From Escherichia coli (GTDB lineage: Bacteria > Pseudomonadota > Gammaproteobacteria > Enterobacterales > Enterobacteriaceae): a stretch of 63,428 nt of DNA. The position numbers were made by a program, and so were the translations under genes. The notes under the pieces were generated by a model. The model worked only from the letters and a program-made list of their open reading frames with translations, was not told where the DNA came from and made no database searches. The DNA is taken from assembly GCF_024223415.1 (NCBI RefSeq), contig NZ_CP100504.1; one strand, written 5' to 3'. Each line of letters starts with the position of its first letter. The first letter of the stretch is position 1. Positions 3,190 to 63,265 of this stretch are shown here, piece by piece.

Positions 3190-4422
3190 TCATGTTGCCG
3201 CCAGCGGGCGACAGATCGCCCGCAGGGCGACGGCGCTGCACAGCGGAAACAGCGCCAGCAGAAGCCAGGGATAAACCGCCTGCGGCGACGGAATGAGCGC
3301 CTGGTCAAGTAAATGACCGAGCAGTAAATTCCCGGCTAACACCGCGCACCCTCCTGCGGTGGCGAGCGCTCCGTAGTGGGCGCCCAGCGTCGACTCCTCG
3401 GCGAACAGCGGGATCAGATCCTTGGCTGCGGGCACTAACAGCATCTGGCCGAGGGTGAGCAGCGTGACAAAACCAGCCGCCGGCATTAACCGCAGCCAAC
3501 TTTCGGCGGGTGGGGCGGCGGCGAATAACGCCACGCTGGCAAAGGAAGCCGACAGCAGCAGAAAGCCCACCGGCAGGATGCGCACGGCGCCCATTCGCCG
3601 GGCGAAGCGGGCGAGAGGGAGCTGGAGGGTGATAATCAACAGCGAGGCCAGCATAAAGAGCGGCGCCAGATCCTGCTCGCGGCCGCCGGAACGTTGGATC
3701 TCCACCGGCAGAGCGAGGTAGAGTTGGTTGTAGCTCAACAGCCATGAGCTGTAGGCGAGAATAAACGCGACAAAGCGCGGCTGGCGCAAAGGCGTCCACC
3801 ATGGGACTCGTCTGCGCGTTGTTGTCGTGTGCCCGTCGGCGGGCAGACCGAAAAAGAGCACCGCCAGCGCCAGAAGAAATATTCCCGCGCCGGCGAGGGC
3901 GATATGTCGAAAGCCGATCCCGCTCAGCACGCCTCCGGCCACCGGGCCGATCACCGCTCCCAGTTCACCGCATACCGCAAACAGCGCAAACCACTCGGCG
4001 CGGCTGCGTTTCCCGTTGGCCTGGCTGTGGGTACCGGCCCGCGCCAGCAGGGCCTCTATCGACGGGGAGAACAGGGCGCCGCCGACGCCGGTCAGGCAGG
4101 CGCCAAGGATAATGGCCCACAGCGACGCCCCGCACGCCAGCAGGAGAAAACCGGCGACGCGAACGACGCAGCCGGCGAGAATGATCGCCTTAGCGCCATA
4201 GCGGTCGGCCAGCGTCCCGCCGAGGATAAACATCCCCTGTTGGGAGAAGGTACGCAGCCCGAGGATCAGGCCGATAAGTCCGCCTGAGAGCAGCATGTCG
4301 TCGCGCAGGAAGAGGGCGAGGAAAGGTACGACCGCGTAAAAGCCAATATTAAAAACGAACTGGCTTCCCAGTAACACCGGAGGCCAGAGGGTTGCCGCAG
4401 GGCGCAGGGAGAAAAGAGGCAT
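3190..4422 (-). CDS. eitD: MFS transporter, EitD-like
   Basis: Multi-pass membrane protein; likely start is the internal Met (MPLFSL) 12 nt after the upstream ATPase stop; last gene of a four-gene operon in eitABCD order. Confidence 0.55.
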   Translation of the reverse strand: MPLFSLRPAATLWPPVLLGSQFVFNIGFYAVVPFLALFLRDDMLLSGGLIGLILGLRTFSQQGMFILGGTLADRYGAKAIILAGCVVRVAGFLLLACGASLWAIILGACLTGVGGALFSPSIEALLARAGTHSQANGKRSRAEWFALFAVCGELGAVIGPVAGGVLSGIGFRHIALAGAGIFLLALAVLFFGLPADGHTTTTRRRVPWWTPLRQPRFVAFILAYSSWLLSYNQLYLALPVEIQRSGGREQDLAPLFMLASLLIITLQLPLARFARRMGAVRILPVGFLLLSASFASVALFAAAPPAESWLRLMPAAGFVTLLTLGQMLLVPAAKDLIPLFAEESTLGAHYGALATAGGCAVLAGNLLLGHLLDQALIPSPQAVYPWLLLALFPLCSAVALRAICRPLAAT

Positions 4423-4433
4423 ATCCGCCCAAC

Positions 4434-5198
4434 CTAAACGATGAAATGAATGTGCTTTTTGCCGTGGTAAGGGGAGATCTCGATTTTGGTTTTCACCCGG
4501 AAAACGTCCCACAGCAGCGCTTCGGACAAAATCTCCTCCGGCGTCCCGCTGGCGAGGATCTGCCCCTGCTGCATCACGATCAGCGAATCGCAGAACATCG
4601 CGGCATGGTTAAGATCGTGAATGGCCACAATGCTGGTTACCGGCAGCTCGCTGATCAACTGCATTAACTGCATCTGATGGTGTATATCCAGATGGTTGGT
4701 CGGCTCATCCAGCAGGATTTCGCTCGGGCTCTGCGCCAGCGCGCGGGCGATATGCACCCGCTGCCGCTCGCCGCCGGAGAGGCTTAACCATCCCTGTTCG
4801 CTTTTCTCCAGCATAGCTACCCGCTGCAGCGCGGCGGCAATCGCTTCGTCATCCTGAGCGCTCCAGTTTGAGAACGGAGAGTGGTGGGGAATGCGTCCCA
4901 GGCGCACGACGTCGCGCACCCGCATATTGGCCTCGGTCATGCCGTGTTGCTCGACGCAAGCCACGCGGCGGGCGAGCTGCTTTTTCGCCATCCGGGCGAT
5001 ATCCTGGCCGTCGAGGGTGACGCGACCTGCATCCGGGCGGCGCAGGCCCGCCAGAACGCGCAGCAGCGAGGATTTGCCGCAGCCGTTGGGCCCCAGCAGT
5101 CCGACCGTTTCGCCGCGCGGCACCCGCAGCGAGACATTATTGACGATGACCTTTTTGCCTGCCTTCCAGGTGATATTTTCAGCGCAAATACTCATCAC
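4434..5198 (-). CDS. eitC: ABC transporter ATP-binding protein (iron-siderophore type), EitC-like
   Basis: 254 aa with Walker A GPNGCGKSS, ABC signature LSGGERQR and Walker B LLDEP. Confidence 0.6.
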   Translation of the reverse strand: MMSICAENITWKAGKKVIVNNVSLRVPRGETVGLLGPNGCGKSSLLRVLAGLRRPDAGRVTLDGQDIARMAKKQLARRVACVEQHGMTEANMRVRDVVRLGRIPHHSPFSNWSAQDDEAIAAALQRVAMLEKSEQGWLSLSGGERQRVHIARALAQSPSEILLDEPTNHLDIHHQMQLMQLISELPVTSIVAIHDLNHAAMFCDSLIVMQQGQILASGTPEEILSEALLWDVFRVKTKIEISPYHGKKHIHFIV

Positions 5199-6232
5199 TT
5201 ATTCCTTGAGCGGTAGATAATCACGGCAAAGAAAGGCACCCCAACCAGGGCGGTTACTACCCCAACGGGCAGACTTTGCGGGGCAATCAGCAGGCGCGAC
5301 GCAATGTCCGCCAGTACCATCAATATCGCCCCTGCCAGCGCGCTGGCGATCAGCAACGTTCGGTGCAGCGGGCCAAAGAAGAAACGCATCACGTGCGGCA
5401 CCACCAGGCCAACAAAGCCGATTGAGCCGGCCATGCTGACGATGGTGGCGGTGATCAGCGCCGCAGTGGTGAAGAGGATCAGGCGCACGCGCGGCACAGC
5501 AATCCCCAGCGAGGCGGCGGCATCGTCGCCGAAGGTGAACGCGTCCAGCGCCCGGGCATACCACAGGCAGACCGCCAGACCCGCGAGCACCACCACGATG
5601 ACCAACTGGAATTCGGGCCAGCGGACGCCGCTGAAGCTGCCCAGCAGCCAGAACATCACATCGCGCGCCTGCTGCGCGCTGGCGGTGGTGCTGATGGTAT
5701 AGGCCGTGATGGCGTTAAATAACTGCGAGGCGGCGACGCCCGCAAGAATCGTACGCTCATTGCCGCCGCGCGCGCCGTTAGTCAGCAAGGCGACAAAGGC
5801 GAAGGCGGCGAAGGCCCCGGCAAAGGCGCCTGCCGAGAGGGAAATTGCGCCAGAGCCAAGGCCCAGCACCACGATCGACACCGCGCCGGTGGAGGCCCCG
5901 GCGGAGACGCCGAGGACGTAGGGTTCGGCGAGGGCATTCTTCAGCAAGCTTTGCAGCACGACACCGCAGATAGCGAGGCCGGCGCCGCAGCAGGCGGCGA
6001 CCAGCGCGCGGCTGAGGCGGAAATCCCAGATAACGCTCTCATAGATATGGTTGAGCGGCTCAGCGGTTAAGCCGGTTCTGTTGCTGATAGCATAAAAGAC
6101 ATTCTGCAGCGGGATGGCCAGCTCGCCAACGCTGACGCCCACAGCGATCACCAGCGCCAGCACGATCGCTGCCAGTATACACCAGCCGGTGAGCAGTATG
6201 CTGCGGCACGTCTCAATCGCGCCGACGCTCAT
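5195..6232 (-). CDS. eitB: ABC transporter permease (FecCD family), EitB-like
   Basis: 345-aa polytopic membrane protein; stop and start overlap the flanking operon genes. Confidence 0.6.
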   Translation of the reverse strand: MSVGAIETCRSILLTGWCILAAIVLALVIAVGVSVGELAIPLQNVFYAISNRTGLTAEPLNHIYESVIWDFRLSRALVAACCGAGLAICGVVLQSLLKNALAEPYVLGVSAGASTGAVSIVVLGLGSGAISLSAGAFAGAFAAFAFVALLTNGARGGNERTILAGVAASQLFNAITAYTISTTASAQQARDVMFWLLGSFSGVRWPEFQLVIVVVLAGLAVCLWYARALDAFTFGDDAAASLGIAVPRVRLILFTTAALITATIVSMAGSIGFVGLVVPHVMRFFFGPLHRTLLIASALAGAILMVLADIASRLLIAPQSLPVGVVTALVGVPFFAVIIYRSRNK

Positions 6233-7230
6233 CAGTTCAGCCCCATTTTTCTCAGCTGCTCGCCCACCTGCTCCGCGCCGTAAAGCGTGCGAATGGTCGG
6301 ATTCATCGCCTGACCGTCCATGACCACGATATGGCCTTTTTTCACCGCCTCCAGCTGGCTGACGGCGGGATCGCTTTTGAGGAATTTGATCTTCTCCTCG
6401 GCTTTATCCAGCGCCCAGCGGTTACGATCCAGGCTGGCGACCACGATCACATCCGGGTTGGCGGCAATAATGCTCTCCCAGCTCACCGTGGGCCACTCGG
6501 TTTCGGAGGTAATCGCATTATGTCCGCCCAGCACGCTGGCGATAAATCCGGAGGCGCTGTTTTTGCCGCCGACATAGGCATCGGCCGAAGGTGAGGCGCT
6601 GGAGAACCAGAAGACGAAGGAGAGATCCTTTTTGCTTTTACCAAACTCCTGGCGCAGGTCGGCTTCACGTTTTTTGAAATCGGCAATCAGCGCCTGACCA
6701 CGATCTTCGACGTTGAAAATGCGGGAAAAATCGCTAATTTCCTGATACAGCCAGGTCATATCCCACAGCTTTTGCCGGCTGCCGTACATATCGCCGGTGG
6801 CCTTTTTGGTGGCGCATACCCCCGGTGAGAGGTAGCTGTTCACGCCGACGGTGGCGAGATCTTCACGCCTGGCGACTTTGCTTTCCGGCCCCAGCAGCAG
6901 CGGCAACTGGGCGGGAACGAAATCAGGATTTTGCGCCAGCACCGATTCCAGGCTCGGAATTTCCACCGTCAAGGTTTTAATCTTCGCGTTTTGCTCAGCC
7001 AGCTGCGGTAAAACGCTGTTCGGCCAGAAGGCGCTGGCGACCACCTGCTTTTGCAGCCCGAGCAGCAGCAGAATTTCGACCGTATTTTGCCCCAGCGCGA
7101 CCACGCGCTCCGGCGGCCGGGTGAAGGTCTCCTGATAGCCGCAGTTTTCAATCGTCAGGGGGTAGGTTGTTGCCAGCGCGGAACTGACGGCGGTGAACAT
7201 CAAGCCTAACGCGCAAAGGATCTTCTTCAT
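6232..7230 (-). CDS. eitA: periplasmic substrate-binding protein, EitA-like
   Basis: 332 aa with an N-terminal signal peptide (MKKILCALGLMFTAVSSALA); first gene of the operon. Confidence 0.6.
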   Translation of the reverse strand: MKKILCALGLMFTAVSSALATTYPLTIENCGYQETFTRPPERVVALGQNTVEILLLLGLQKQVVASAFWPNSVLPQLAEQNAKIKTLTVEIPSLESVLAQNPDFVPAQLPLLLGPESKVARREDLATVGVNSYLSPGVCATKKATGDMYGSRQKLWDMTWLYQEISDFSRIFNVEDRGQALIADFKKREADLRQEFGKSKKDLSFVFWFSSASPSADAYVGGKNSASGFIASVLGGHNAITSETEWPTVSWESIIAANPDVIVVASLDRNRWALDKAEEKIKFLKSDPAVSQLEAVKKGHIVVMDGQAMNPTIRTLYGAEQVGEQLRKMGLN

Positions 7231-8084: not shown

Positions 8085-8438
8085 TTAATTTATTAGCTTC
8101 ATCGCATTTTTTTTGGTCTCTTCATCACTTTTTTGCTCTTGTTGTGAAGAGGATTGAGTGACTATTGAAGAATTAAAATCGGCCATCTCTTTTGGAAATA
8201 GCGATCTCAATATATTCACGATATCTGAAAATGTGGTTTCTTTCGTCAGCAATTCACATAAAAGGAAAGGGGCCCTGGGATCTTGTCTGTATAAGGCCAG
8301 ACCTGCCGTCAGTGCAGCCCGGTTAAGGCGGCTGCGTTCCCCTTGCGGGATACTGTCCAGTGTATCACAAACAATTTTATCTGTTTGATTTACATCTGGA
8401 TTTAGCTTAAAGGCAATGGTTCTGCGCTTGTCCATCAT
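8085..8438 (-). CDS. parR: partition protein ParR (StbB), centromere-binding adaptor
   Basis: 117-aa product matching R1 ParR ([43 protein letters not shown]...). Confidence 0.9.
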   Translation of the reverse strand: MMDKRRTIAFKLNPDVNQTDKIVCDTLDSIPQGERSRLNRAALTAGLALYRQDPRAPFLLCELLTKETTFSDIVNILRSLFPKEMADFNSSIVTQSSSQQEQKSDEETKKNAMKLIN

Positions 8439-9400
8439 TAATTACCTATGAGATACATACCGTTAACTAAATCATATTGAGAGTTATTGGTTTTAAAAAA
8501 ACGTTCATCACGAATCTGTGTGTGTTTTTTTACTGCATCGCATATTAATTCTGCGCCACCACCTATAACCATAACATGAGTATAACCAGAAAATTCATTG
8601 AGTGTATTTAATACACGTTGCTCAAGTTTACGAAGTGCTTCATTCATTGCTTCGGTGACTATTGATATTTTGTTCTCATCATTAATTCGTTGCTTCAGAT
8701 AGTTATTATCTTTTCTGTGAATAATTATATCGTCAGCAAGATAGCTACTTCCTTTTGTTCTCGCAAGAGAAAGGGCATCTTTTACTGCAGATGTGACCAG
8801 AGATACACCAAGAGATGAGTCTCCGTATATTTTACTGATCCCCGATAATTTCCCCATTACCTGAGAAATATCTAATGTGGTGCCCCCGAGATCTATAATT
8901 AATAAAGAATCTAACTCATCCAGTTCTTGTAGAACTTCATAACCTGCCGGTATAGATTCAGGCATGACTTTTACATCTTTTATTGTGAATGTATCCCCAC
9001 CATTTAATGTAATTTTTTTCCGGAAGTTTGCTTTCTTACGCTCAATATTTTCCGTATTGGGTTGGTTATTCCTGTCGTAATACTCTGTCAGAGGAAGTGT
9101 GCAAACAATATCCACTTCGCTTACCGGCAGACCACTGGTCAGTAAGGCGTGGTGCACCGCAACGACATTAACGTCGCTGTATTGCCATGCGATATTGGTT
9201 GTGACTACAGCATCCGGGCTGATTGGATCAAATGAATACTGTTCGCTGTTCAGTGTGTAGTTAAAGACCTTTTTATCACCAAAAGAAACTGCCCACTCGC
9301 GTTTGAAGCTGTTCGGGCTAATGTGCTGTTTAATTGTTCCGTCGCTTTCCTGCCACTGTAGTTTGATGTTTGTTGAACCGTCATCAATGAATACCAACAT
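8438..9400 (-). CDS. parM: actin-like partition ATPase ParM (StbA)
   Basis: 320-aa product matching R1 ParM ([21 protein letters not shown]...). Confidence 0.9.
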
Positions 9401-9565
9401 TTATAAAACTCCTTATGGTGTTTTTTTGGTGTTTGTTTGGGTGTTTTTTGGATTTTAAGTGGGTTTATTTGTCAAGTTTACCCCATTTTAACTATCAATC
9501 AATGATTATTTGTCTTGTTTTGGTGTTTTATTGGGTTTAGTGTGGGTTGTTTTTGGGTTTTGTTT
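9401..9565. other. parC centromere and promoter region
   Basis: G/T-rich iterated short repeats (ttttggtgttt, gtttgggtgtt and similar) on both sides of a promoter-like core directly upstream of parM. Confidence 0.6.
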
Positions 9566-9910
9566 GGCGGATAACAAAAGATGTCGCCGGGCTCCTCTTT
9601 TTACTGCGCCGGCTGACGCGGCGCGGCAGGAACGCTGCCTGTGGTCAGTGTCCCGCGTCCGGCCGGGCACGGGACGGGCGCTTTTACCGCTCCCGGCTGG
9701 CGTCGGTGACAGTGTACGCCAGCCCGTCGCCCTTTTCTGATGAGCGCCCTTCAAGCCGCTTTCGCGGCATAACCTTGCCGTCAGAAAGACGACGGCTGCG
9801 GTATTCCACGGTCGGCCTGACCCGTTACCGGGCGCGGTGAACAGCCCACAGGCAGCGGGGAACGGGCGCCACAGGGGCGCCCTCCCGATGCTCCTGTGAG
9901 GATAATTCCC

Positions 9911-10837
9911 ATGCCAAACTGGTGCTCGAATCGTATGTATTTTTCTGGTGAACCGGCACAGATCGCTGAGATTAAACGACTGGCCAACGGTGCAGTCACA
10001 CCGCTTTATCGCCGCGCCACAAATGAAGGTATTCAGCTGTTTCTGGCCGGAAGTGCCGGACTTCTGCAGACCACTGAAGATGTGCGGTTTGAACCATGCC
10101 CCGGACTGACGGCTGCCGGACGTGGTGTTGTATCTCCGGAGAATATAGCGTTCACCCGCTGGCTGACACACCTGCAGAACGGTGTACTGCTGGATGAGCA
10201 AAACTGCCTGATGCTGCATGAAATCTGGCTGCAGAGCGGTACTGGACAGCGTCGCTGGGAAGGATTACCGGACGATGTCAGGGATACCATCACCGCACTT
10301 TTCACCGCAAAAAGAGGTGACTGGTGTGGCTTCTGGAGTAACGAGGATGTATCGGTGTGGTGGAACCGTCTGTGTGACAATGTACTGCCGGAAAAAAACA
10401 TGCCGTTTGACCTGCTGACGGTTCTGCCGACCCGCCTTGATGTTGAAGTGAATGGCTTCAACGGTGGTGTTCTGAACGGTGTTCCTTCTGCATATCACTG
10501 GTATACAGAACGGTATGGTGTCAAGTGGCCTTGTGGTTATGACCTGAATATCAGCAGTCAGGGGGAAAACTTCATTCAGGTGGATTTCGACACGCCGTGG
10601 TGTCAGCCGGAAAGCGACGTTATTGCAGCATTAAGCCGCCGTTTCAGCTGCACGCTGGAGCACTGGTATGCCGAACAGGGCTGTGATTTCTGTGGCTGGC
10701 AGTTGTATGAGCGCGGAGAGCTCGTTGATGTGCTGTGGGGGGAGCTGGAATGGTCTTCCCCGACAGATGACGATGAGCTGCCGGAAGTCACCGGACCTGC
10801 GTGGATAGTCGACAATGTGGCGCATTATGGCGGATGA
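9911..10837 (+). CDS. conserved leading-region protein of unknown function (DUF1281-like by recollection)
   Basis: ATG at 9911 preceded by gagga; ~308-aa Cys/Trp-rich protein; identity is from memory of IncF leading-region ORFs only. Confidence 0.55.
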
Positions 10838-11241
10838 AGTATGACGGAGACGGGCGGGCAACCGCCCGTTTCTTTTCCGGTAAAGGATGTCGCCGCAGGC
10901 TCCGCTTTACCCGGCCATGCGGGGCATGGCCTTGTGGATTTTCAGTTATGTGGCCTCAGCGTCGTGTGCGGGCTGTGCCGTGCCTCCATCGTAGCCGGGC
11001 TTCTGCGGGCGGGTTGCAAGGTAAGGTGAACCGCTGCGGTCACCCGGTCCCTCCTTCCCGTCTGCCGTGATTTTCCGGTCGTTCACCCGCTCAGATTTCG
11101 CGGTCTCACCCTCCAACTCCCGCCAGCCGTGTGCGTCAGGCTGCGGCTTCCCTTGCGCCCTTGCAACCCTGCAGGCCCGGCAAAGATGGAGGCACGGCAC
11201 CGCCCGGTGTCGCGGAATATGTGAACAACGGAGGAAATCCC

Positions 11242-11667
11242 ATGCAGTATGCGAAACCTGTCACTCTGAATGTTGAAGAGTGCGACCGTCTCTCCTTTCT
11301 GCCTTACCTGTTTGGCCAGGATTTTCTGTATGCCGAGGCATCTGTGTACGCGCTGGCGAAAAAAATGATGCCGGAATATGACGGCGGATTCTGGCACTTC
11401 ATCCGCCTGCCGGACGGTGGCGGTTACATGATGCCGGATGGCGACCGTTTCCACATGGTGAACGGTGCAAACTGGTTTGACCGTACCGTGAGTGCTGATG
11501 CCGCAGGCATCATTGTGACTTCCCTTGTGATTAACCGTCAGTTGTGGCTGTACCACGACAGCGGTGATGCAGGACTGACTCACCTGTACAGGATGCGCGA
11601 TGCGCAGTTGTGGAGCCACATCGAATTTCACCCCGAATGCAATGCGATTTACGCGGCACTGGACTGA
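11242..11667 (+). CDS. klcA: antirestriction protein KlcA/ArdB family
   Basis: 141 aa from an internal ATG with RBS ggagga; KlcA-like motifs (FLPYLFG, PDGGGYMMPD, SADAAGIIVT, AIYAALD). Confidence 0.8.
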   Translation: MQYAKPVTLNVEECDRLSFLPYLFGQDFLYAEASVYALAKKMMPEYDGGFWHFIRLPDGGGYMMPDGDRFHMVNGANWFDRTVSADAAGIIVTSLVINRQLWLYHDSGDAGLTHLYRMRDAQLWSHIEFHPECNAIYAALD

Positions 11668-11713
11668 TTAACGGACGGGGCGGCAATGCCGCCCCTGTAA
11701 AGGAGACGAGAAC

Positions 11714-12136
11714 ATGTACTGTACTGTTAAAGAAATTATCCGCGAAGTGCTGGATACAGACGTGCCGGACAGTGAATGCGTTTTTGCCGTGGTGCTGACC
11801 CGTGGGGATGTGCGCCACATAGCTCAGGACTGGAGTCTGGCAGACGATGAGCTGGAAACCGTCATGCAGCGGCTGGACGATGCCTTTGAGCATGGTGCGG
11901 ATGTCAGCGTTGTTCACGACGTTGTTCGTGAACTGATGGAAGAAAAGCGCGCCAGCCGTCATGTGACAGTCCCGGCGATGATGCTGGAAAAAGTGATGGC
12001 GCTGGCAGGCAGTGAAATGAAGCGCCTGTATGCCGTCGGAAGTGAGAACGGGGGCGACGGTGACGCATTCGTCAGGGAGGAACGCGAAGCAATGGACGTT
12101 GTGTTACAGGCGCTGGACGGGGAGACGATGTCATGA
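11714..12136 (+). CDS. hypothetical acidic leading-region protein (DUF1380-like by recollection)
   Basis: 140-aa ORF with RBS aggagacg, directly after klcA. Confidence 0.55.
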   Translation: MYCTVKEIIREVLDTDVPDSECVFAVVLTRGDVRHIAQDWSLADDELETVMQRLDDAFEHGADVSVVHDVVRELMEEKRASRHVTVPAMMLEKVMALAGSEMKRLYAVGSENGGDGDAFVREEREAMDVVLQALDGETMS

Positions 12137-12324
12137 ATATCAGCACAGAAACCCGCGAAATTCTGCGTAATTACAGGGCCGTGATTAATGCGCGGCGTCG
12201 TGAAATGGGGCAGAAACCGCTCACCACCGCGCAGATTGTTGATGAAATCTGCGATTTTGTGGCGAATCAGCAGGCGGTTTTCCTGGGCGGTCACTACATC
12301 TTACAGGGCAGCAGAAACAGGTGA
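12133..12324 (+). CDS. small hypothetical protein
   Basis: 63-aa ORF whose ATG overlaps the upstream stop (atgtcATGa), suggesting translational coupling. Confidence 0.45.
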   Translation: MNISTETREILRNYRAVINARRREMGQKPLTTAQIVDEICDFVANQQAVFLGGHYILQGSRNR

Positions 12325-12514
12325 TACAGGGGCAGGCGGTGGAGGCCGCCTGTCAGCCCGCGCGAAAACCCCTGGCAGGCTGACGCCTGCCGGAAGGGAA
12401 GCGGGCCACGCTGGCGCGTCGCCCGTTACCCTTCCCGTCTGTGATGTGTCTGACTCAGGAGTGTTTCTTTCTTATGTTATGGAACTGTTCCTGATGTTGT
12501 TGTTCCTTTATCTG

Positions 12515-13125
12515 CTGCTCTGATTCTGACTACTGCAGTGTTGTTCTGTCTGCCGGGCGCACCTTCGGCTCCCGGCTGCCTGGCGGCATCCGGTCGTCAG
12601 GCCCGACTCCGACAGGCAGCTGCTGGCGCACCCGCCAGTCTCCGCCGAACCCGCTGGCGCGGTTTCGGGCTGTCGCTACGGTCCGATGCGTGAAAACCCC
12701 GGGCTTGCAGCGACCGTTCCGGTCGCGCCGCCTCTGTCGCGCCGTGGCCTGCGCTCCAGGCATCCCGGCAAAAAGACGCCGGGATGTAAGGCGCAACGCC
12801 GTTTCGCAAACCGCGCTTCACGTCGTTGCTGCGGGTCCCTGCTCATTGCCTGCCGGGTGCCACACACCCGTATGAGTCCCTGTCGCCGGGGGCATAGACA
12901 GCCACAACCTGCCGCACTGACTGTCCAGGGTAAATGAACAGCCCACAAAATTTTTTACCCAAAACCCGGTAAAAAATTTTGCGTTCTGCCCAGGACAGGT
13001 GCGTCAGGCCGTGGCAGTGATGCCCCTTGCGGCGAAGGTTCTCAAACGGGTGAAGTTCATACCACAGGGAATACAGCAGCAGGTTCCCGCGAAACGTCAA
13101 AACTGCGGCTCCCGAAACTCAACGG
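12515..13125. repeat. leading-region ~620-bp direct repeat, copy 1 (Frpo/ssi-like)
   Basis: Near-identical by eye to 15867-16496 and 21269-21897; GC-rich with internal hairpins such as aaaattttttacc-(9 nt)-ggtaaaaaatttt. Confidence 0.85.
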
Positions 13126-13363
13126 GTGATGTTCTTTAAAAATCAGGATTTATTTCAGGCTCCGGCAATACGCATTTATGTGTTCTGTCAGTCATCCGGC
13201 TGGCAGGTAATGAGAACGCAGGAACAGAAGGAGGAAAACACCGGAGAACGTCAGACGCAGATATGAAAAAAGCAGGTCAGGGACCTGCTTAATCCACGCC
13301 GTAAGAATTGCGCAACCAATTTTGACGGCATTGTTAACCAATTTGTCATAAGGAGTTTCATTT

Positions 13364-13594
13364 ATGACGGTAAGTATTGTTTCACCTTCCGCAGCGGCTG
13401 TAAAGCCCCGCCGTCATCCCCGTTTCAGACGCGAAGACATCCCCGCGCCGGAAATTGACCCCGTGCTGAAAGCCTTCGGGCGACACATAGCCCGGAGTTT
13501 TCACCGGGGGCGTGGTGTACACATCCCCGCCATGAAAAACACGGCCTTCGGGCAGGTGCTCCGCACACTCGAACTGAAACGCGCTTTTAACTGA
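13364..13594 (+). CDS. small basic hypothetical protein
   Basis: 76-aa ORF with RBS aggag 8 nt upstream; first ORF downstream of repeat copy 1. Confidence 0.4.
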   Translation: MTVSIVSPSAAAVKPRRHPRFRREDIPAPEIDPVLKAFGRHIARSFHRGRGVHIPAMKNTAFGQVLRTLELKRAFN

Positions 13595-13645
13595 TGAGGT
13601 GAGCCGCCCCGCGAGGGGCGGCAACAGATGGAAGGAGAACATTTT

Positions 13646-15007
13646 ATGACATTAGCAGCAATCACCATGACCGCCTCGGAAGCCGCCAACCCTGTGCAGA
13701 TGTACCGCGCGACCTACTCACCGGATGACAACAAACTGCGCCTGTATGCCGCGTCACGTCTTGACCCGGAGACGTATAAAAAAGTGCATGATGCCGGTTT
13801 TCGCTGGGCACCCAAACAGGCGCTGTTTGTCGCGCCAGCCTGGACACCGGGCCGGGAAGACGTGCTCCTCTCACTTGCCGGAGAGATTGAGGATGAAGAC
13901 AGCACGCTCGCTGAACGTCAGGAAGCACGGGCGGAGCGGTTTACCGGATACAGCGGAAAGCGGGCCAGTGAATCCGCACAGGCACTTGATGAAGTGGAAA
14001 GACTGGCCGCGATGATCCCGCCCGGTCAGCCCATTCTTGTGGGGCATCACAGCGAACGCCGCGCCCGTCGTGATGCGCAGCGTATTGAAAACGGCATGAA
14101 ACGTGCCGTGATGCTCTTTGAACGTGCGGAATACTGGGAGGAGCGGGCGCGGTCGGCACTGCTTCACGCGAAGTATAAAGAACGCCCGGACGTTCGCTGG
14201 CGTCGTATCAAAAAAATCGAAGCGGATTTGCGCAAGGCTGAAAAGACCATCGCGCAGTCGCAGAAATATCTGACGATGTGGCGGGCTGAATCGCTGGATC
14301 TGAATATGGCAAAACTCATCAGCAGTCATGACCATATCAGCGCCTGTTTCCCGCTGGACAGGTATCCGCGCCCGGCAGAAAAAAGCCAGTATGAAGGAAG
14401 TCGATCGTTATGGTCGGCCCTGGATGATGACATCATCACCACGGAGCAGGCCCGCGAAATTGCGATCCGCTGTCATGAACGGCAGATTCAGCATCAACAA
14501 CGCTGGGTTAACCACTATCAGAACCGCCTGATCTATGAGCGTGCCATGCTGGACGAAAGCGGCGGCGTGGTTACCCGGACACAGGATTTTGAGCCGGGCG
14601 GACAGGTTTTCAGCCGGGGCGAGTGGCTGACCATCATCCGCGTGAACAAAAGCAACGGGGCGGTGAGTTCAGTCACAACGCCGAATTACAGTTTTCTCGG
14701 GTACAGCGGCACGATGAAAGTGACACCCGATCGCATCACGGACTACAAAGCACCATCGGCAGAAGAGGCTGCCGTCGCCAGTCAGGCCGCGAAGCGTCCG
14801 CCGGTAGTCAACTATCCGGGGGAAGGTTTCCGGGAAATGACAAAGGCGCAGTGGGCCGCCCTGCCCCGGGACTGTAAGGCCGTGCGCAGTGTGGCAGAGA
14901 CAGAAGACCACGGGGCATACCGCTACCGCCGCACAATGGACAATAATTTCCGCCTGGTGAATGTGTATATCACCGACATGAAAATCACGGAAATCCCACA
15001 GAAATAA
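13646..15007 (+). CDS. large conserved leading-region protein of unknown function (DUF3560-like by recollection)
   Basis: ~453 aa from the ATG at 13646 (RBS aggaga); immediately followed by an orphan DNA methyltransferase. Confidence 0.6.
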   Translation: MTLAAITMTASEAANPVQMYRATYSPDDNKLRLYAASRLDPETYKKVHDAGFRWAPKQALFVAPAWTPGREDVLLSLAGEIEDEDSTLAERQEARAERFTGYSGKRASESAQALDEVERLAAMIPPGQPILVGHHSERRARRDAQRIENGMKRAVMLFERAEYWEERARSALLHAKYKERPDVRWRRIKKIEADLRKAEKTIAQSQKYLTMWRAESLDLNMAKLISSHDHISACFPLDRYPRPAEKSQYEGSRSLWSALDDDIITTEQAREIAIRCHERQIQHQQRWVNHYQNRLIYERAMLDESGGVVTRTQDFEPGGQVFSRGEWLTIIRVNKSNGAVSSVTTPNYSFLGYSGTMKVTPDRITDYKAPSAEEAAVASQAAKRPPVVNYPGEGFREMTKAQWAALPRDCKAVRSVAETEDHGAYRYRRTMDNNFRLVNVYITDMKITEIPQK

Positions 15008-15053
15008 GGTATATCCCCCCGGGAAATCCCCGGGGGATGACGGAGATAATGAC

Positions 15054-15617
15054 ATGCACAGTCAGTTAAGAGAACGTATCCGGCTGATGCGCGCAAGGCT
15101 GGATAACGCCGCGCCGGTTGCTGAAATCCGGGCTGAATCTCAGCTTTTTGTGACTCCTGCCCCGGTCTGTGATCGCCTGGTGACGCTGGCGGAAATCAGC
15201 AACCGTGATCACATTCTGGAACCCTCTGCCGGCACCGGGGCCATACTGCTGGCGATTCGGGATACCGCGCCGGAGGCCATGTGTGATGCGGTGGAGATTA
15301 ACAGCGGGCTGGTCCGGTATCTGCGGGAAAATTTTAACGGTGTCAGGGTACAGTGTGGCGACTTCATGGAATGGCAGCCGGTGCAGTATTACAGCCGGAT
15401 CATTATGAATCCGCCGTTCAGTCACGGGCAGGATATCCGGCATATCCTGCGGGCTTTTTCCCTGTTGCGTCCGGGGGGCGTTCTGGTTGCCGTCTGTCTC
15501 AACGGGCCGCGCCAGCAGGAGAAGCTGTTACCGTTTTCTGACGTCCGCGAGGAGCTGCCGCGCGGCACGTTTGCTTATACCGATGTCCCGACGATGATTA
15601 TTCGTTTGCGTGCCTGA
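15054..15617 (+). CDS. orphan SAM-dependent DNA methyltransferase (amino-MTase, NPPF motif)
   Basis: 187 aa with a SAM-binding-like segment (ILEPSAGTGAILLAI) and catalytic motif IIMNPPF; no adjacent restriction endonuclease. Confidence 0.75.
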   Translation: MHSQLRERIRLMRARLDNAAPVAEIRAESQLFVTPAPVCDRLVTLAEISNRDHILEPSAGTGAILLAIRDTAPEAMCDAVEINSGLVRYLRENFNGVRVQCGDFMEWQPVQYYSRIIMNPPFSHGQDIRHILRAFSLLRPGGVLVAVCLNGPRQQEKLLPFSDVREELPRGTFAYTDVPTMIIRLRA

Positions 15618-15796: not shown

Positions 15797-15855
15797 CTGC
15801 TACTGCTACTGCTACTGCTACTGCTACTGCTACTGCTACTGCTACTGCTACTGCT
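15797..15855. repeat. hexanucleotide tandem repeat (CTGCTA)n, about 10 units
   Basis: ctgcta repeated in tandem immediately 5' of repeat copy 2; copies 1 and 3 have only a short unrepeated ctgct(g)ctc stretch at the equivalent position. Confidence 0.9.
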
Positions 15856-15866
15856 CTTCTTTTTCC

Positions 15867-16496
15867 TGCTGCTCTGATTCTGACTACTGCAGTGTTGTTC
15901 TGTCTGCCGGGCGCACCTTCGGCTCCCGGCTGCCTGGCGGCATCCGGTCGTCAGGCCCGACTCCGACAGGCAGCTGCTGGCGCACCTGCCAGTCTCCGCC
16001 GAACCCGCTGGCGCGGTTTCGGGCTGCCGCTACGGTCCGATGCGTGAAAACCCGGCTTGCAGCGACCGTTCCGGTCGCGCCGCCCCTGTCGCGCCGTGAC
16101 CTGCGCTCCAGGCATCCCGGCAAAAAGACGCCGGGATGTAAGGCGCAACGCCGTTTCGCAAACCGCGCTTCACGTCGTTGCGGCGGGTCCCTGCCCGTTG
16201 TTGTGTCCGGTGCCATTCACCTGTTTAAGCCCCTGTCGCCGGGGGCTGATACAGCCACAACCTGCCGCACTGACTGTCCAGGGTAAATGAACAGCCCACA
16301 AAATTTTTTACCCAAAACCCGGTAAAAAATTTTGCGTTCTGCCCAGGACAGGTGCGTCAGGCCGTGGCAGTGATGCCCCATGCGGCGAAGGTTCTCAAAC
16401 AGGTGATGGTGAATACCGGAGGGAACAAAGAGCAGGTCCCCGCAAAACGTCAAAACCGCGGCTCCCGAAACTCAACAGATGATGGGGGCTGAAAAC
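15867..16496. repeat. leading-region ~620-bp direct repeat, copy 2 (Frpo/ssi-like)
   Basis: Near-identical to copies 1 and 3; ends about 20 bp upstream of ssb. Confidence 0.85.
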
Positions 16497-16517
16497 ATCA
16501 ACAGAAGGAGACACATC

Positions 16518-17397: not shown

Positions 17398-19354
17398 ATG
17401 TCAGTTACAGAGTCTAAGACAAAAACGGAGCGTAAATCCAGCCGTAAACCTGCAAAAACGCAGGAAACTGCACTGTCTGCCCTGCTGGCGCAGACGGAGG
17501 AAGTGAGCGTGCCGCTGGATTCACTGATTAAATCACCGCTGAATGTGCGCACGGTGCCGTATTCTGCGGAGTCCGTCAGTGAACTGGCTGATTCCATTAA
17601 GGGAGTCGGCCTGCTGCAGAATCTGGTTGTTCATGCCCTGCCAGGTGACCGTTACGGTGTCGCCGCAGGTGGTCGCCGACTGGCAGCACTCAACATGCTG
17701 GCAGAGCGTGACATCATTCAGGCTGACTGGCCTGTCCGCGTGAAAATTATTCCGCAGGAGCTGGCGACGGCTGCATCGATGACCGAGAACGGTCATCGTC
17801 GGGATATGCACCCTGCCGAACAGATTGCCGGATTCCGTGCAATGGCGCAGGAAGGCAAAACGCCTGCACAAATCGGTGATTTGCTGGGCTATTCACCCCG
17901 CCACGTTCAGCGAATGCTGAAACTGGCAGACCTTGCGCCTGTCATCCTCGATGCGCTGGCAGAAGACCGCATCACCACAGAACACTGTCAGGCGCTGGCG
18001 CTGGAGAACGACACCGCGCGTCAGGTGCAGGTGTTTGACGCTGCCTGTCAGTCGGGATGGGGCGGTAAACCGGATGTGCGGGTTATCCGCAATCTGATTA
18101 CGGAAAGTGAAGTGGCGGTGGCGGGGAACAGTAAATTCCGCTTCGTGGGGGCTGATGCTTTCTCGCCAGACGAACTGCGCACCGATTTGTTCAGCGACGA
18201 CGAGGGTGGCTATGTCGACCGCGTGGCGCTCGATGCTGCCCTGCTGGAAAAACTCCAGGCTGTCGCTGAACACCTTCGGGAAGCCGAAGGCTGGGAATGG
18301 TGCGCCGGACGCATGGAGCCTGTCGGTGAGTGTCGTGAGGATGCCGGAACCTACTGCTGTCTGCCGGAGCCGGAAGCGGTGCTGACGGAGGCGGAAGAAG
18401 AACGCCTGAACGAACTGATGACGCGTTACGACGCGCTGGAAAACCAGTGTGAGGAATCCGACCTGCTGGAAGCAGAAATGAAGCTGATGCGCTGCATGGC
18501 GAAGGTCAGGGCGTGGACGCCGGAGATGCGTGCCGGAAGCGGTGTCGTGGTGTCCTGGCGTTACGGTAATGTGTGTCCAGCGTGGTGTGCAGTTGCGCAG
18601 TGAAGATGACGCGGCTGACGACGCTGACCGCACGGAACAGGTGCAGGAGAAAGCATCAGTGGAGGAAATCAGTCTGCCGTTGCTGACGAAAATGTCCTCA
18701 GAGCGCACGCTGGCAGTCCAGGCGGCACTCATGCAGCAGCCGGACAAATCTCTGGCACTGGTGGCATGGACGCTCTGCCTGAATGTGTTTGGCAGCGGGG
18801 CGTACAGTAAACCAGCACAAATCAGCCTGGAATGTGAACATTATTCGCTGACCAGCGATGCGCCATCGGGGAAGGAAGGTGCCGCATTCATGGCGCTGAT
18901 TGCAGAAAAAGCCCGTCTTGCTGCCCTGTTACCGGAGGGATGGTCACGGGACATGACGACATTCCTTTCACTCAGTCAGGAGGTGCTGTTATCCCTGCTC
19001 AGTTTCTGCACCGCATGCAGCCTTAACGGTGTCCAGACCCGTGAGTGTGGTCACACGTCACGCAGTCCGCTTGACTCGCTGGAAACCGCTATCGGATTCC
19101 ACATGCGCGACTGGTGGCAGCCGACAAAAGCAAACTTCTTCGGACACCTGAAAAAGCCGCAGATTATCGCAGCCCTGAATGAGGCAGGACTGTCCGGTGC
19201 CGCACGGGACGCGGAGAAGATGAAGAAAGGTGATGCGGCTGAACATGCAGAGCACCATATGAAAGACAACCGCTGGGTTCCAGGCTGGATGTGTGCACCA
19301 CATCCACAGACAGATGCCACTGAACGCACCGATAACCTGGCTGATGCCGCCTGA
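17398..19354 (+). pseudogene. ParB-like nuclease domain protein, reading frame interrupted
   Basis: Two overlapping ORFs (17398-18603 and 18530-19354) in different frames; the frame switch maps to a gtgtgt dinucleotide run near 18575; joined length ~650 aa. Confidence 0.6.
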
Positions 19355-20559: not shown

Positions 20560-20739
20560 TGCGGCAACAATCACACGGATTTCCCGTGAACGGTCTGAAT
20601 GAGCGGATTATTTTCAGGGAAAGTGAGTGTGGTCAGCGTGCAGGTATATGGGCTATGATGTGCCCGGCGCTTGAGGCTTTCTGCCTCATGACGTGAAGGT
20701 GGTTTGTTGCCGTGTTGTGTGGCAGAAAGAAGATAGCCC

Positions 20740-20810
20740 CGTAGTAAGTTAATTTTCATTAACCACCACGAGGCATCCCTATGTCTAGTCCACATCAGGA
20801 TAGCCTCTTA
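20740..20810 (-). ncRNA. sok: Sok antisense RNA (approximate)
   Basis: Placed by position antisense to the mok/hok leader, from the known organisation of hok/sok loci; exact ends not determinable by eye. Confidence 0.35.
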
Positions 20811-20993
20811 CCGCGCTTTGCGCAAGGAGAAGAAGGCCATGAAACTACCACGAAGTTCCCTTGTCTGGTGTGTGTTGATCGTGTGTCTCACACTGTTGAT
20901 ATTCACTTATCTGACACGAAAATCGCTGTGCGAGATTCGTTACAGAGACGGACACAGGGAGGTGGCGGCTTTCATGGCTTACGAATCCGGTAA
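20781..20993 (+). CDS. mok: Mok (modulation of killing) overlapping reading frame
   Basis: 70-aa ORF overlapping hok in another frame, as in R1 hok/sok. Confidence 0.55.
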
Positions 20994-20997: not shown

Positions 20998-21268
20998 CAA
21001 CCTGGAGGCGGGCGCAGGCCCGCCTTTTCAGGACTGATGCTGGTCTGACTACTGAAGCGCCTTTATAAAGGGGCTGCTGGTTCGCCGGTAGCCCCTTTCT
21101 CCTTGCTGATGTTGTACGGGCATGAACAACCTGACTTCAGGAAGGTCGTTTCCCTTCAGGAACGGGGATGAACGCGCGCCTGCGGCGCCCGTTCTTTTCC
21201 CCCGCCTTCTCTGGTTATGGCCTGTCAGAAATCACATCACCTTCCCTGTGATTATTCTCTTTTTCTTC

Positions 21269-21897
21269 CTGCTCTGATTCTGACTACTGCAGTGTTGTCC
21301 TGTCTGCCGGCGCACCTTCGGCTCCCGGCTGCCTGGCGGCATCCGGTCGTCAGGCCCGACTCCGACAGGCAGCTGCTGGCGCACCTGCCAGTCTCCGCCG
21401 AACCCGCTGGCGCGGTTTCGGGCTGTCGCTACGGTCCGATGCGTGAAAACCCCGGGCTTGCAGCGACCGTTCCGGTCGCGCCGCCTCTGTCGCGCCGTGG
21501 CCTGCGCTCCAGGCATCCCGGCAAAAAGACGCCGGGATGTAAGGCGCAACGCCGTTTCGCAAACCGCGCTTCACGTCGTTGCGGCGGGTCCCTGCCCGTT
21601 GTTGTGTCCGGTGCCATTCACCTGTTTAAGCCCCTGTCGCCGGGGGCTGATACAGCCACAACCTGCCGCACTGACTGTCCAGGGTAAATGAACAGCCCAC
21701 AAAATTTTTTACCCAAAACCCGGTAAAAAATTTTGCGTTCTGCCCAGGACAGGTGCGTCAGGCCGTGGCAGTGATGCCCCTTGCGGCGAAGGTTCTCAAA
21801 CAGGTGATGGTGAATACCGGAGGGAACAAAGAGCAGGTCCCCGCAAAACGTCAAAACCGCGGCTCCCGAAACTCAACAGATGATGGGGGCTGAAAAC
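21269..21897. repeat. leading-region ~620-bp direct repeat, copy 3 (Frpo/ssi-like)
   Basis: Near-identical to copies 1 and 2; ends about 20 bp upstream of the ORF at 21918. Confidence 0.85.
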
Positions 21898-21917
21898 CAG
21901 AGAGAGGAGAAAGCTGG

Positions 21918-22323: not shown

Positions 22324-23145
22324 ATGCGATTAGCTTCCCGTTTTGGTCGGTATAATTCCATCCGTCGTGAACGTCCTTTAACGGATGATGAATTAATGCA
22401 GTTCGTGCCTTCGGTATTTTCCGGTGATAAACATGAGTCCCGGAGTGAACGTTATACGTATATTCCAACAATCAATATCATCAATAAGTTACGTGATGAA
22501 GGTTTCCAGCCATTCTTTGCCTGTCAGAGTCGGGTTCGTGATTTGGGACGCCGCGAATACAGTAAACATATGTTACGTCTTCGCAGGGAAGGGCATATTA
22601 ACGGGCAGGAAGTTCCTGAAATTATCCTGCTTAATTCACATGATGGTTCATCCAGTTATCAGATGATCCCCGGAATTTTTCGTTTTGTCTGCACAAATGG
22701 CCTGGTGTGCGGAAATAATTTTGGCGAAATCCGTGTTCCACATAAAGGTGATATTGTCGGGCAGGTTATCGAGGGAGCGTATGAAGTGCTCGGTGTCTTT
22801 GATAAGGTCACTGATAATATGGAGGCGATGAAAGAAATTCATCTTAACAGTGACGAGCAACATTTATTTGGCAGAGCTGCACTGATGGTCAGGTATGAAG
22901 ATGAAAATAAAACGCCAGTGACGCCTGAACAAATAATTACTCCCCGTCGTCGGGAAGATAAAAAGAACGATCTCTGGACAACCTGGCAGCGGGTTCAGGA
23001 GAATATGATAAAAGGTGGATTATCGGGGCGAAGTGCCTCCGGGAAAAATACCAGGACAAGAGCCATTACAGGTATTGATGGTGATATAAGAATCAACAAG
23101 GCGTTATGGGTGATTGCCGAACAGTTCAGAAAGTGGAAGTCATGA
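22324..23145 (+). CDS. DUF932-like leading-region protein
   Basis: 273 aa from the ATG at 22324 (RBS aggag); conserved partner of orf169 near oriT in F-like plasmids. Confidence 0.65.
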   Translation: MRLASRFGRYNSIRRERPLTDDELMQFVPSVFSGDKHESRSERYTYIPTINIINKLRDEGFQPFFACQSRVRDLGRREYSKHMLRLRREGHINGQEVPEIILLNSHDGSSSYQMIPGIFRFVCTNGLVCGNNFGEIRVPHKGDIVGQVIEGAYEVLGVFDKVTDNMEAMKEIHLNSDEQHLFGRAALMVRYEDENKTPVTPEQIITPRRREDKKNDLWTTWQRVQENMIKGGLSGRSASGKNTRTRAITGIDGDIRINKALWVIAEQFRKWKS

Positions 23146-23150
23146 TAATA

Positions 23151-23187
23151 TAAGTAAAGCCCCGAAAATTTTTCGGGGCTTTACTTA
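23151..23187. terminator. rho-independent-type terminator hairpin
   Basis: Perfect palindrome taagtaaagccccgaaaa-t-tttcggggctttactta starting 6 nt after the stop of the upstream gene. Confidence 0.55.
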
Positions 23188-23439
23188 TATTATCATTCTT
23201 CGGCATCGCTGTGTCGTCTGATATACCTCAATTCCATCAACCGGCTTTCCGGTTGTCTGTAAATATTGTGCCCGCGAAAAATGGTCTGGCAGGAGGCTGC
23301 GCAGTTACCGGGTATATATAAGATGGGTTCCCGCTTCGCGGGGCTTCGGCCAGTCAGCATTGTCACTCATATGATATTTTTGTGTGTGGCCTTCATGCCG
23401 CTTTTGCGGCATAACCGGTATCTGACAATGTCTGTAAGA

Positions 23440-23949
23440 TTAATTGTTCTGCACGCTGTTAATTTCCGGAAGTGATTTCTTCGTGACCGGAATCCGGATA
23501 CCTTTACTGATTTTTATCCCGGTATAAATCCGGTAAACCTCTGATGCGTAGGCAAGACGTCTCTGGTTCTGGCGTTCGGTCTTCCTGAATCCGGCATTGT
23601 ATGCACCAACGGCCTCCCAGGAGACGCCCCATTTTTTAAAGGCTATTGCCAGATAATAAGCACCGGTATAAATGTTCATGCAGGGATCTGTTGTCAGATG
23701 TTCCGGCTTAATTCCGTAGCGGGCCAGTTCGTTAAAATGCTGGGAATCTACCTGCATCAGTCCGCTGCCATATCCCGTTACCGGATTAATACCGATGGCA
23801 TTAACCCGGTAACGGGATTCTTTCCATGATATTGCTCTCAGTAAATCAGGATCTATTTTGTAATCCCGGCCTGCAAGATCAAAGCAATCAGTGGCATGGC
23901 AGATCTCATTTATAAACATCAGGCAGATGGCTAACATCCATTTTTTCAT
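23440..23949 (-). CDS. lytic transglycosylase-like protein (orf169 / gene X), SLT domain
   Basis: 169 aa from [12 protein letters not shown] with RBS gaggtgg; signal peptide; directly adjacent to oriT. Confidence 0.8.
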
Positions 23950-63169: not shown

Positions 63170-63265
63170 CTGATCGTTTAAGGAATTTTGTGGCTGGCCA
63201 CGCCGTAAGGTGGCAGGGAACTGGTTCTGATGTGGATTTACAGGAGCCAGAAAAGTGAAAACCCC
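63170..63265 (-). ncRNA. copA: CopA antisense RNA (approximate)
   Basis: Stem-loop-rich region between repA2 and tap; placed by analogy with R1/R100 copy-number control; ends not determinable by eye. Confidence 0.4.

Follow-up and report, generated by a model that had tools for sequence, protein, structure and literature searches.

What do the genes do that an IncF plasmid sends into a new host first? The question is raised by positions 9911-15617 of a 63,428-nt stretch of Escherichia coli DNA (contig NZ_CP100504.1; the window), which is an entire IncFII replicon. These 5.7 kb belong to the leading region of a conjugative IncFII plasmid of the R100/pMccB17 kind, of which they form the oriT-distal half, and hold seven open reading frames (ORFs), all on the plus strand, with the transferred minus strand as their template (Table 1). 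A preliminary description, made from the letters alone, had noted that known anti-defense genes, klcA and a methyltransferase gene, are mixed here with ORFs of no assigned function; it proposed the latter as anti-defense factors and singled out a 453-aa protein and the methylase downstream of it as the most obvious module. We found the known anti-restriction gene klcA and the methyltransferase gene among function-unknown ORFs as described, and every ORF, the NPPF motif and the palindrome lie where they had been placed. Calling the region an "island" was too strong, as it is conserved IncF backbone: among the matches listed, at least 5000 plasmid records match the stretch at 90-99% identity, mostly conjugative IncF plasmids of Escherichia, Klebsiella, Salmonella and Shigella.

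The explanation we favor, at a probability of roughly 55%, is an early-expressed leading region in which KlcA serves anti-restriction and the 453-aa protein, YdbA, together with the methylase, would act as a two-subunit N6-adenine methyltransferase protecting the entering plasmid. An anti-defense role for the function-unknown ORFs would be plausible. Both the locus and the anti-defense idea have already been published (Samuel et al., 2024; PMC11541004, supplementary file 3), and the finding itself therefore adds little. The additions are modest: the relation of YdbA and the methylase to a single gene, the conserved hairpins between cistrons, and the overlap of the antisense RNA AS-pc01 with ydaB.

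YdbA and the methylase as two parts of one protein

By sequence comparison, YdbA corresponds to the N-terminal two-thirds, and the 187-aa methylase to the C-terminal third, of single-chain relatives. A search of 1.84 billion representative proteins returned 3893 relatives of the 453-aa protein. In 86 of the 114 representatives (clusters at 50% identity) that cover essentially all of YdbA, the C-terminal domain is homologous to the neighboring methylase (E-values 1e-15 to 1e-40), which bears out the proposal that the two genes are one module: they are fused in most distant relatives. Residues 484-662 of one fused protein (P0134) align with the methylase across its whole 187 aa at 39% identity (E-value 4e-37). 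The fused proteins are 640-700 aa long, with a proline-rich linker where the IncF gene is split. A fused gene neighbors ssb, DUF932, kleA and radC on a Pseudomonas plasmid, and integrative elements have the fused form together with an integrase and RadC; the AFDB relatives come from planctomycetes, acidobacteria and beta-, gamma- and delta-proteobacteria.

On plasmids the two halves are adjacent and colinear in 4966 of the best 5000 records. The split is kept in Klebsiella and Edwardsiella plasmids, where about 46 nt separate the two halves, ydaB precedes them and a Frpo-type element stands ahead of the unit. Among the E. coli, Klebsiella and Edwardsiella versions, the ydbA gene has a ratio of nonsynonymous to synonymous substitution rates (dN/dS) of 0.07-0.10 and the methylase gene one of 0.28, values like those of ssb (0.15-0.24) and klcA; for ydaB, whose product is 75-82% identical in the Klebsiella and Edwardsiella plasmids, the ratio is 0.12-0.20. 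Values of 0.07-0.28 indicate that ydaB, ydbA and the methylase gene are real genes under purifying selection, and low dN/dS together with the conserved arrangement indicates that the split is old and maintained. Decay, in which one or both halves would have lost function and the palindrome between them would be a scar or a chance feature, might be argued from the fused form being the majority state and from the folding of the palindrome, which is only mildly unusual in this sequence alone (z score -1.75; 8/200 shuffles). We nevertheless consider it highly improbable and rejected a pseudogene on the dN/dS values: neither half is disrupted in E. coli, Klebsiella or Edwardsiella despite saturated synonymous divergence, the catalytic motifs do not vary, ydbA and the methylase gene each have a Shine-Dalgarno sequence and an ATG of their own, and the hairpin structure is kept with different sequence. 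The least probable alternative is that a fused YdbA-methylase is still made on IncF plasmids through programmed read-through or frameshifting at the hairpin. A stable hairpin does stand just after the ydbA stop codon, and the two ORFs share a frame in Edwardsiella, but, counted from the frame of ydbA, the methylase is read in +1 in the window, in +2 in Klebsiella and in 0 in Edwardsiella, and each methylase ORF has its own ribosome-binding site. Since the frame relation differs among the three lineages, we rejected recoding at the palindrome.

The palindrome that the preliminary description placed between the two genes is present, although it is imperfect, with 7 bp, a C.C mismatch and 3 bp. 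Its region folds at -21 to -23.7 kcal/mol, and the Klebsiella and Edwardsiella plasmids have a hairpin of other sequence, CTCCCCGGC-loop-GCCGGGGAG, at the same position. An intrinsic terminator was considered and rejected: the palindrome is followed by GACGGAGATAATGAC and not by a T-run, and it is absent from the terminator scan. A second GC hairpin, between ydaB and ydbA, comes directly after the ydaB stop codon, again with no T-run; it is kept in the three lineages with loop or stem changes, and the RNA fold of 13585-13655 has a z score of -5.0. The most economical reading is that the GC hairpins between cistrons probably stabilize the mRNA or tune the ratio of the cistrons.

The first gene of the unit, ydaB, gave no family match in Pfam, NCBIfam, PHROGs or PADLOC, and its product has no similarity to the small ORFs upstream of the fused relatives. 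We therefore take ydaB as an addition of the IncF lineage. Klebsiella chromosomal spacers of clustered regularly interspaced short palindromic repeats (CRISPR) match the DUF3560 (ydbA) and methylase genes; these matches fit a conserved backbone target and are uninformative on function.

In the AlphaFold model of YdbA, which is confident (predicted local distance difference test score, pLDDT, 92.3; predicted template modeling score, pTM, 0.80), residues 20-83 form a small alpha/beta domain, residues 88-212 (the DUF3560 region) form long helical hairpins that carry many of the invariant arginines, and residues 266-304 form a further long helix. The beta-rich C-terminal region, 320-442, is predicted to combine a KOW/Tudor-like barrel with an alpha/beta subdomain, and in structure comparison the modeled barrel resembles the KOW domains of NusG/Spt5 and the RNA-binding OapB. 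Foldseek comparison with AFDB50 returned family members only, some misnamed "Hydrolase," and no characterized relative; a sequence search of the PDB with YdbA gave no match. In the methylase, motif I (EPSAGTG, residues 56-62) is followed by motif IV (NPPF, residues 119-122), both invariant in 25 sequences. A target-recognition domain is absent: all 187 aa are catalytic domain, and the extra sequence of the fused relatives is the DUF3560 part, with no known recognition domain. No gene for a cognate restriction endonuclease is adjacent; ydbA lies upstream, and a repeat region and then ssb lie downstream.

Entry order and expression from the transferred strand

The placement in the leading region, asserted in the preliminary description, is confirmed by the F/R100 nic sequence, GTGGGGTGTGGTGCTTT, which has a single exact occurrence in the window, at 24033-24049 on the minus strand. 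The genes traM and traJ lie at higher coordinates than nic. An exact nic on the minus strand means that this strand is transferred and that the DNA of lower coordinates enters first, 5' end leading; region 9911-15617 is on the first-entering side, 8.4-14.1 kb from nic. The gene order agrees with this: the window shares ssb, a ParB-like gene, a Hok-family toxin gene and traM with the annotation of F, pO86A1 and pMTY1886 (psiB is annotated in F), and the leading-region set of ssb, psiB, psiA, hok/sok and the ParB-like gene is found by comparison with pMTY1886 (99.2% identical) and F. F is reported to transfer at about 770-790 nt/s (bioRxiv 10.64898/2026.01.09.698686), at which rate the DNA at 9.9-15.6 kb of the window would enter within about 11-18 s.

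The seven genes form three groups, each with a long single-strand hairpin upstream. The hairpin ahead of the DUF1281 gene, folded as DNA over 9600-9900 on the minus strand, reaches -97.7 kcal/mol (z score -6.7; 0/100 shuffles equally stable). It is 95% identical to elements of F (L003:4826-5151) and pO86A1 (L002:3972-4296) that lie between the DUF1281 gene and a "DNA methylase" gene, and the gene directly downstream of its homolog in F, pO86A1 and an Edwardsiella plasmid encodes an M.EcoGIX-type methylase. By homology it is a candidate for class 3 of Wen et al. (2025), the "ssp3" of Fraikin et al. (2026), and its putative promoter role follows from PMC12672017.

This hairpin, which normally precedes the M.EcoGIX-type gene, has the DUF1281 gene downstream of it here. 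The DUF1281 gene and klcA are separated in F, pO86A1 and pMccB17 by a block of 2.6 kb with the hairpin, a small ORF, the M.EcoGIX-type methylase gene and further ORFs of unknown function that vary among these plasmids. The block is missing from the window and from pMTY1886, where its flanks overlap by 27 nt at 10882-10908, a deletion junction. The M.EcoGIX-type block having been deleted, the 187-aa enzyme is the sole methylase in this leading region.

The hairpin ahead of klcA has 32-nt arms (10969-11000 and 11175-11206) that are 91% complementary and folds at -78.4 kcal/mol (z score -4.65). In F, the homologous element (L003:7452-7750; 89% identity) lies a short way upstream of yfgB, the antirestriction gene. 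This F element, ssp2, has been reported as a single-strand promoter and as a transient, UvrD-resolved block to complementary-strand synthesis (bioRxiv 10.64898/2026.01.09.698686).

The Frpo-type element ahead of ydaB is the first of three direct repeats of about 660 nt (families D1, D2 and D5), at 12484-13146, 15838-16499 (upstream of ssb) and 21237-21900 (upstream of psiB). Positions 12695-13131 align with the element that F has upstream of ssb (93% identity across 438 nt), and the DNA of 12760-13150 on the minus strand folds at -113 kcal/mol (z score -13.1). Elements of this type stand upstream of both ydaB and ssb in the Klebsiella and Edwardsiella plasmids as well. A TTGACG was seen on the gene-proximal arm of the ydaB element, with no convincing -10 hexamer assigned. 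Between the methylase gene and the element upstream of ssb lies a perfect tandem repeat, (CTGCTA) x 9.8, at 15797-15855, where F has a pyrimidine-rich CTT/CCT repeat at the equivalent position; RefSeq annotates leucine-rich "hypothetical proteins" over it that are probably not genes.

Single-strand promoters and zygotic induction have been reported in F and pESBL (PMC12672017; bioRxiv 10.64898/2026.01.09.698686), and the pESBL hairpins, conserved in F, are promoters in transconjugants by 5' rapid amplification of cDNA ends (Wen et al., 2025; PMC12672017). By homology to those elements, the hairpins of the window would act as promoters only while the DNA is single-stranded, giving a short burst of expression on entry and then silencing once the complementary strand is made. 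AS-pc01, on the minus strand, is complementary to the Shine-Dalgarno region and ribosome-binding site and to the start codon of ydaB. It has a promoter-like TTTACA-17-AACAAT with a TG extension (13404-13376, minus strand) and a terminator hairpin (13290-13270, minus strand) followed by a T-run. Its RNA fold has a z score of -5.3, Klebsiella retains the terminator stem in altered sequence, and the region is 70-74% conserved. From this overlap, AS-pc01 would probably keep the unit off in established cells.

Table 1. Features of the 63,428-nt window, grouped by subject; positions are those of the window
Feature	Position	Strand	Remark
ydaB, 76 aa, very basic (isoelectric point, pI, 11.9)	13364-13594	+	first gene of the ydaB-ydbA-methylase unit
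ydbA, DUF3560, 453 aa	13646-15007	+	DUF3560 PF12083, 1e-36, on residues 89-206
Methylase, class I, S-adenosylmethionine (SAM)-dependent, 187 aa	15054-15617	+	"rsmA" by Prokka in pMccB17
Palindrome/hairpin ATCCCCCCGGGAAATCCCCGGGGGAT	15013-15038	+	6 nt after ydbA stop, 15 nt before methylase ATG
GC hairpin GCCGCCCC-GCGA-GGGGCGGC	13603-13622	+	between ydaB and ydbA
AS-pc01 antisense RNA, Rfam RF02875	13267-13369	-	86.7 bits vs gathering score 79
Frpo/ssi-type class 1 element upstream of ydaB	12484-13146	-	core hairpin ~12800-13118
Hairpin upstream of klcA, ssp2 homolog	10940-11240	-	
Hairpin upstream of DUF1281 gene	9576-9900	-	candidate single-strand promoter
yfdA/yubB-type gene, DUF1281 + DUF1281_C, ferredoxin-like, Api92-like	9911-10837	+	308 aa
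klcA, ArdB-type anti-restriction, 141 aa	11242-11667	+	Pfam Antirestrict PF03230, 2e-25
DUF1380-family acidic protein, 140 aa	11714-12136	+	RefSeq name of 99%-identical copy; pI 4.41
orf63, 63 aa, basic	12133-12324	+	conserved in F and pO86A1 annotation
RepA	1-858		in the window
eit siderophore ATP-binding cassette (ABC) transport operon	3190-7230	-	EitA and EitC matches above NCBIfam cut-offs
parM and partner	8085-9400		
sok	20665-20841		Rfam match
tra genes	from ~24.3 kb		
traJ 5' untranslated region and FinP	24.8-24.9 kb		
CopA	63253-63344		in the window

Several further observations concern the rest of the replicon. A major facilitator superfamily (MFS) transporter gene accompanies the eit operon at 3190-7230 (minus strand), between the replicon and the partition genes. 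Two clusters of 11-bp iterons (GGTGTTTTTTG-like) at 9407-9571 adjoin parM and directly abut the first leading-region hairpin; they look like the parC centromere of R1-type ParMRC systems. The ParB-like yfjB/herB homolog is split into ORFs at 17398-18603 and 18530-19354 because 2 nt that pMTY1886 and F have are missing near 18569; this is a real pseudogene or a sequencing error. Near-perfect short palindromes at 23142-23196 (27 nt, 100% complementary) and 23772-23818 (22 nt, 91%) lie near an SLT-domain gene and oriT.

Possible roles of the unit and its neighbors

Ahead of the ydaB unit, only KlcA belongs to a family of described function. It matches the solved structures 2KMG (6e-19) and ArdB-like 2WJ9 (1e-8), is 93% identical to its F homolog (yfgB), and has a dN/dS of 0.10-0.17. 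The F homolog is itself 93% identical to R64 ArdB, reported as a type I restriction inhibitor in vivo (bioRxiv 10.64898/2026.01.09.698686). From its family, KlcA would block restriction enzymes.

The DUF1281 protein (Pfam PF06924, 2e-48; PF18406, 7e-15) begins with MPNWCSN, matches phrog_37043 over its full length (1-308/308) and aligns from residue 3 to the solved Api92 (2IJR, 4e-50), itself "hypothetical." In pMTY1886, RefSeq starts the gene at a later ATG, 9935; the full-length phrog match, the Api92 alignment and the length of the 927-nt "gene_3" of pMccB17 support the start at 9911. The protein has 3.2% Cys, 5.2% Trp and a pI of 4.46. The DUF1380 protein has a weak match to its Pfam family (0.0047); no solved homolog was found in a PDB sequence search, and a second homolog search gave close relatives only. 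The orf63 start codon overlaps the DUF1380 stop codon (ATGA), which suggests translational coupling. In an IncF plasmid of Klebsiella, the gene after klcA is not DUF1380 but a homolog of "DNA polymerase III subunit theta" (L008, 3965-4219); the same plasmid has a group II intron reverse transcriptase gene (ltrA) upstream.

As expected from the preliminary description, searches of NCBIfam, Pfam, PHROG and PADLOC and sequence searches of the PDB gave no housekeeping homology for the function-unknown ORFs. PADLOC, NCBIfam and solved structures likewise gave no match that assigns a function to DUF1281, DUF1380, orf63, YdaB or YdbA. The PHROG matches of DUF1281, DUF1380 and YdbA are to families without known function only, and orf63 and YdaB have none; orf63 has no family match in Pfam, NCBIfam or PADLOC either.

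In the explanation we favor, DUF1281, DUF1380 and orf63 would be co-expressed early proteins alongside KlcA, and YdbA and the methylase would assemble into a two-subunit N6-adenine methyltransferase, as their fusion in relatives suggests. Binding of nucleic acid, or recruitment, would fall to YdbA, through its modeled KOW/Tudor-like barrel and arginine-rich helical hairpins. Most likely, the pair would methylate the incoming plasmid DNA and so blunt restriction, by analogy and not by homology to M.EcoGIX. More tentatively, YdbA might load the catalytic subunit on the entering single strand or nascent duplex, possibly via RNA polymerase or the replisome, with broad protective methylation of low specificity as the result; we regard this extension as possible and on balance doubtful.

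Several points weigh against this explanation. We infer the physical association of YdbA and the methylase from gene fusion. The family profile of the methylase scores M.TaqI, whose catalytic domain is the best solved match, at 2.7e-9, nearly tied with the Dim1/KsgA rRNA dimethylases (6e-9) and HemK (2e-8), and type I HsdM scores almost as well. The best Pfam family, MTS (1e-7), is a small-domain family and is not specific to DNA methyltransferases. Family and structure searches assign no function to the early proteins DUF1281, DUF1380 and orf63. Inspection and a consensus scan of the relevant arms found no convincing promoter hexamers in the hairpins. Finally, F lacks ydaB-ydbA-methylase and the third Frpo copy, and F expression data therefore miss this unit.

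The near tie bears directly on what the enzyme methylates. Where the preliminary description named an orphan NPPF DNA methyltransferase, the motif and the orphan status hold, and DNA is only a probable substrate, as the family profile scores DNA, rRNA and protein methylases alike; we discarded the comparison of that profile with the PDB as a means of settling the substrate. YdbA and the methylase could instead modify host RNA or protein, acting on an adenine of rRNA or tRNA or, as HemK does, on a glutamine, and so reprogram or disarm the recipient after entry. The weak best NCBIfam matches (Erm, KsgA, PrmC), the second-ranking Pfam match (RrnaAD), the missing target-recognition domain and the KOW-like barrel of YdbA would suit such an enzyme. 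So would the neighboring YfjB/HerB, a reminder that not every leading-region gene counters defense: it is reported to reprogram host transcription and metabolism and not to block defense (PMC13370423). We consider this reading unlikely, since the strongest family matches of the methylase are modules inside PHROG profiles of 1259-3925 residues (E-values 1e-14 to 1e-49, some annotated as DNA methyltransferase) and the PADLOC models for mad2 (1e-20) and for type II or orphan methylases, and the fused relatives lie among the DNA-handling establishment genes ssb, radC and kleA. From these matches, DNA is more likely than RNA or protein to be the substrate.

A broader alternative, which we hold to be rather unlikely, is that DUF1281, DUF1380, orf63, YdaB and possibly the YdbA-methylase pair serve plasmid establishment, through strand synthesis, control of SOS or of fitness cost, or host reprogramming. 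None of DUF1281, DUF1380, orf63, YdaB and YdbA matches a PADLOC or known anti-defense family. Acidity such as that of DUF1281 and DUF1380 (pI about 4.4) is, on the other hand, typical of DNA-mimic anti-restriction proteins (ArdA/Ocr), which we take as a lead only. The ORFs are also co-transcribed with klcA or stand in a position enriched for anti-defense genes according to Samuel et al. (2024; PMC11541004, supplementary file 3). Precedents for establishment functions do exist in the same region, in SSB, a protein that binds single-stranded DNA, in PsiB (SOS inhibition) and in HerB (PMC13370423), and ssp2 itself affects the timing of DNA conversion (bioRxiv 10.64898/2026.01.09.698686). Such genes can be costly and not protective, as loss-of-function mutations in a leading-region operon of related IncI plasmids raised transfer in one host (PMC10104558).

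Comparison with known leading regions and methyltransferases

The leading regions of F, R100 and pMccB17 have been described before (Manwaring, 1999, cited in PMC7736820; PMC10912980; Couturier, 2023; Fraikin, 2026, preprint). The window shares with IncF leading regions the nic sequence, gene order and orientation, Frpo-type repeats, klcA, DUF1380, orf63, ssb, the ParB-like gene, psiB/psiA and hok/sok. Its nucleotide identity to F is 93-95% wherever the segment is present, and the gene spacing is the same as in pMccB17, whose table has klcA, gene_78, yffA, ydaB, ydbA and "rsmA." Resistance and virulence genes in Enterobacterales are carried mainly by IncF plasmids, and genes expressed in the first seconds help decide whether transfer into a foreign host succeeds.

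Samuel et al. (2024; PMC11541004) list DUF1380 as family 7 (3957 members), DUF1281 as family 27 and DUF3560 as family 28 among uncharacterized families enriched in leading regions, suggest many such families to be anti-defense, and link the DUF3560 family by structure to a "Methyltransferase domain protein" (A0A212J123). The parts of its text and tables considered here do not mention the split of DUF3560 and methylase on IncF plasmids, the hairpins between cistrons or the AS-pc01 overlap. DUF3560 is among the largest uncharacterized leading-region families, for which the split-gene relation gives a testable handle. The DUF3560 protein and the methylase beside it are best studied as a single enzyme, for which F, having neither, is an unsuitable model.

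The methylase module that the 187-aa enzyme shares with the C-terminal domain of the fused relatives also occurs in the very large phage proteins of the PHROG profiles of 1259-3925 residues, presumably P1 DarB-like. Here, unlike in those proteins, no helicase or other module is attached, and the DUF3560 part matches a separate family, phrog_6744. Only the methylase module is shared, and most relatives are 640-700 aa long with DUF3560 and methylase only, which sets them apart from polyvalent, DarB-like proteins. M.TaqI, a gamma-class N6-adenine methyltransferase, has the same order of SAM motif and NPPY/F, but the similarity spans about 90 residues and is no better than that to rRNA methylases, and the C-terminal DNA-recognition domain of M.TaqI, about 180 aa, is missing from the enzyme here.

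There is a parallel with the single-strand-specific plasmid enzymes M.EcoGIX and M.BceJIII (PMC7736820), likewise orphan adenine methyltransferases of leading regions, with the entering strand as template, a hairpin upstream and a presumed protective role. M.EcoGIX protects entering DNA (PMC7736820). It belongs to the beta class, has DPPY as its motif and, in F-like plasmids, is 227 aa long under the name "DNA methylase," whereas the enzyme here has NPPF after motif I and a 453-aa partner; the window contains no M.EcoGIX homolog, and the 187-aa enzyme falls outside that family. If the two-subunit methyltransferase acts as proposed, YdbA and the methylase would be a second, non-homologous solution to the task of M.EcoGIX. 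This solution would be found on thousands of IncF plasmids of resistance and virulence and, as a fused protein, on conjugative elements from many phyla.

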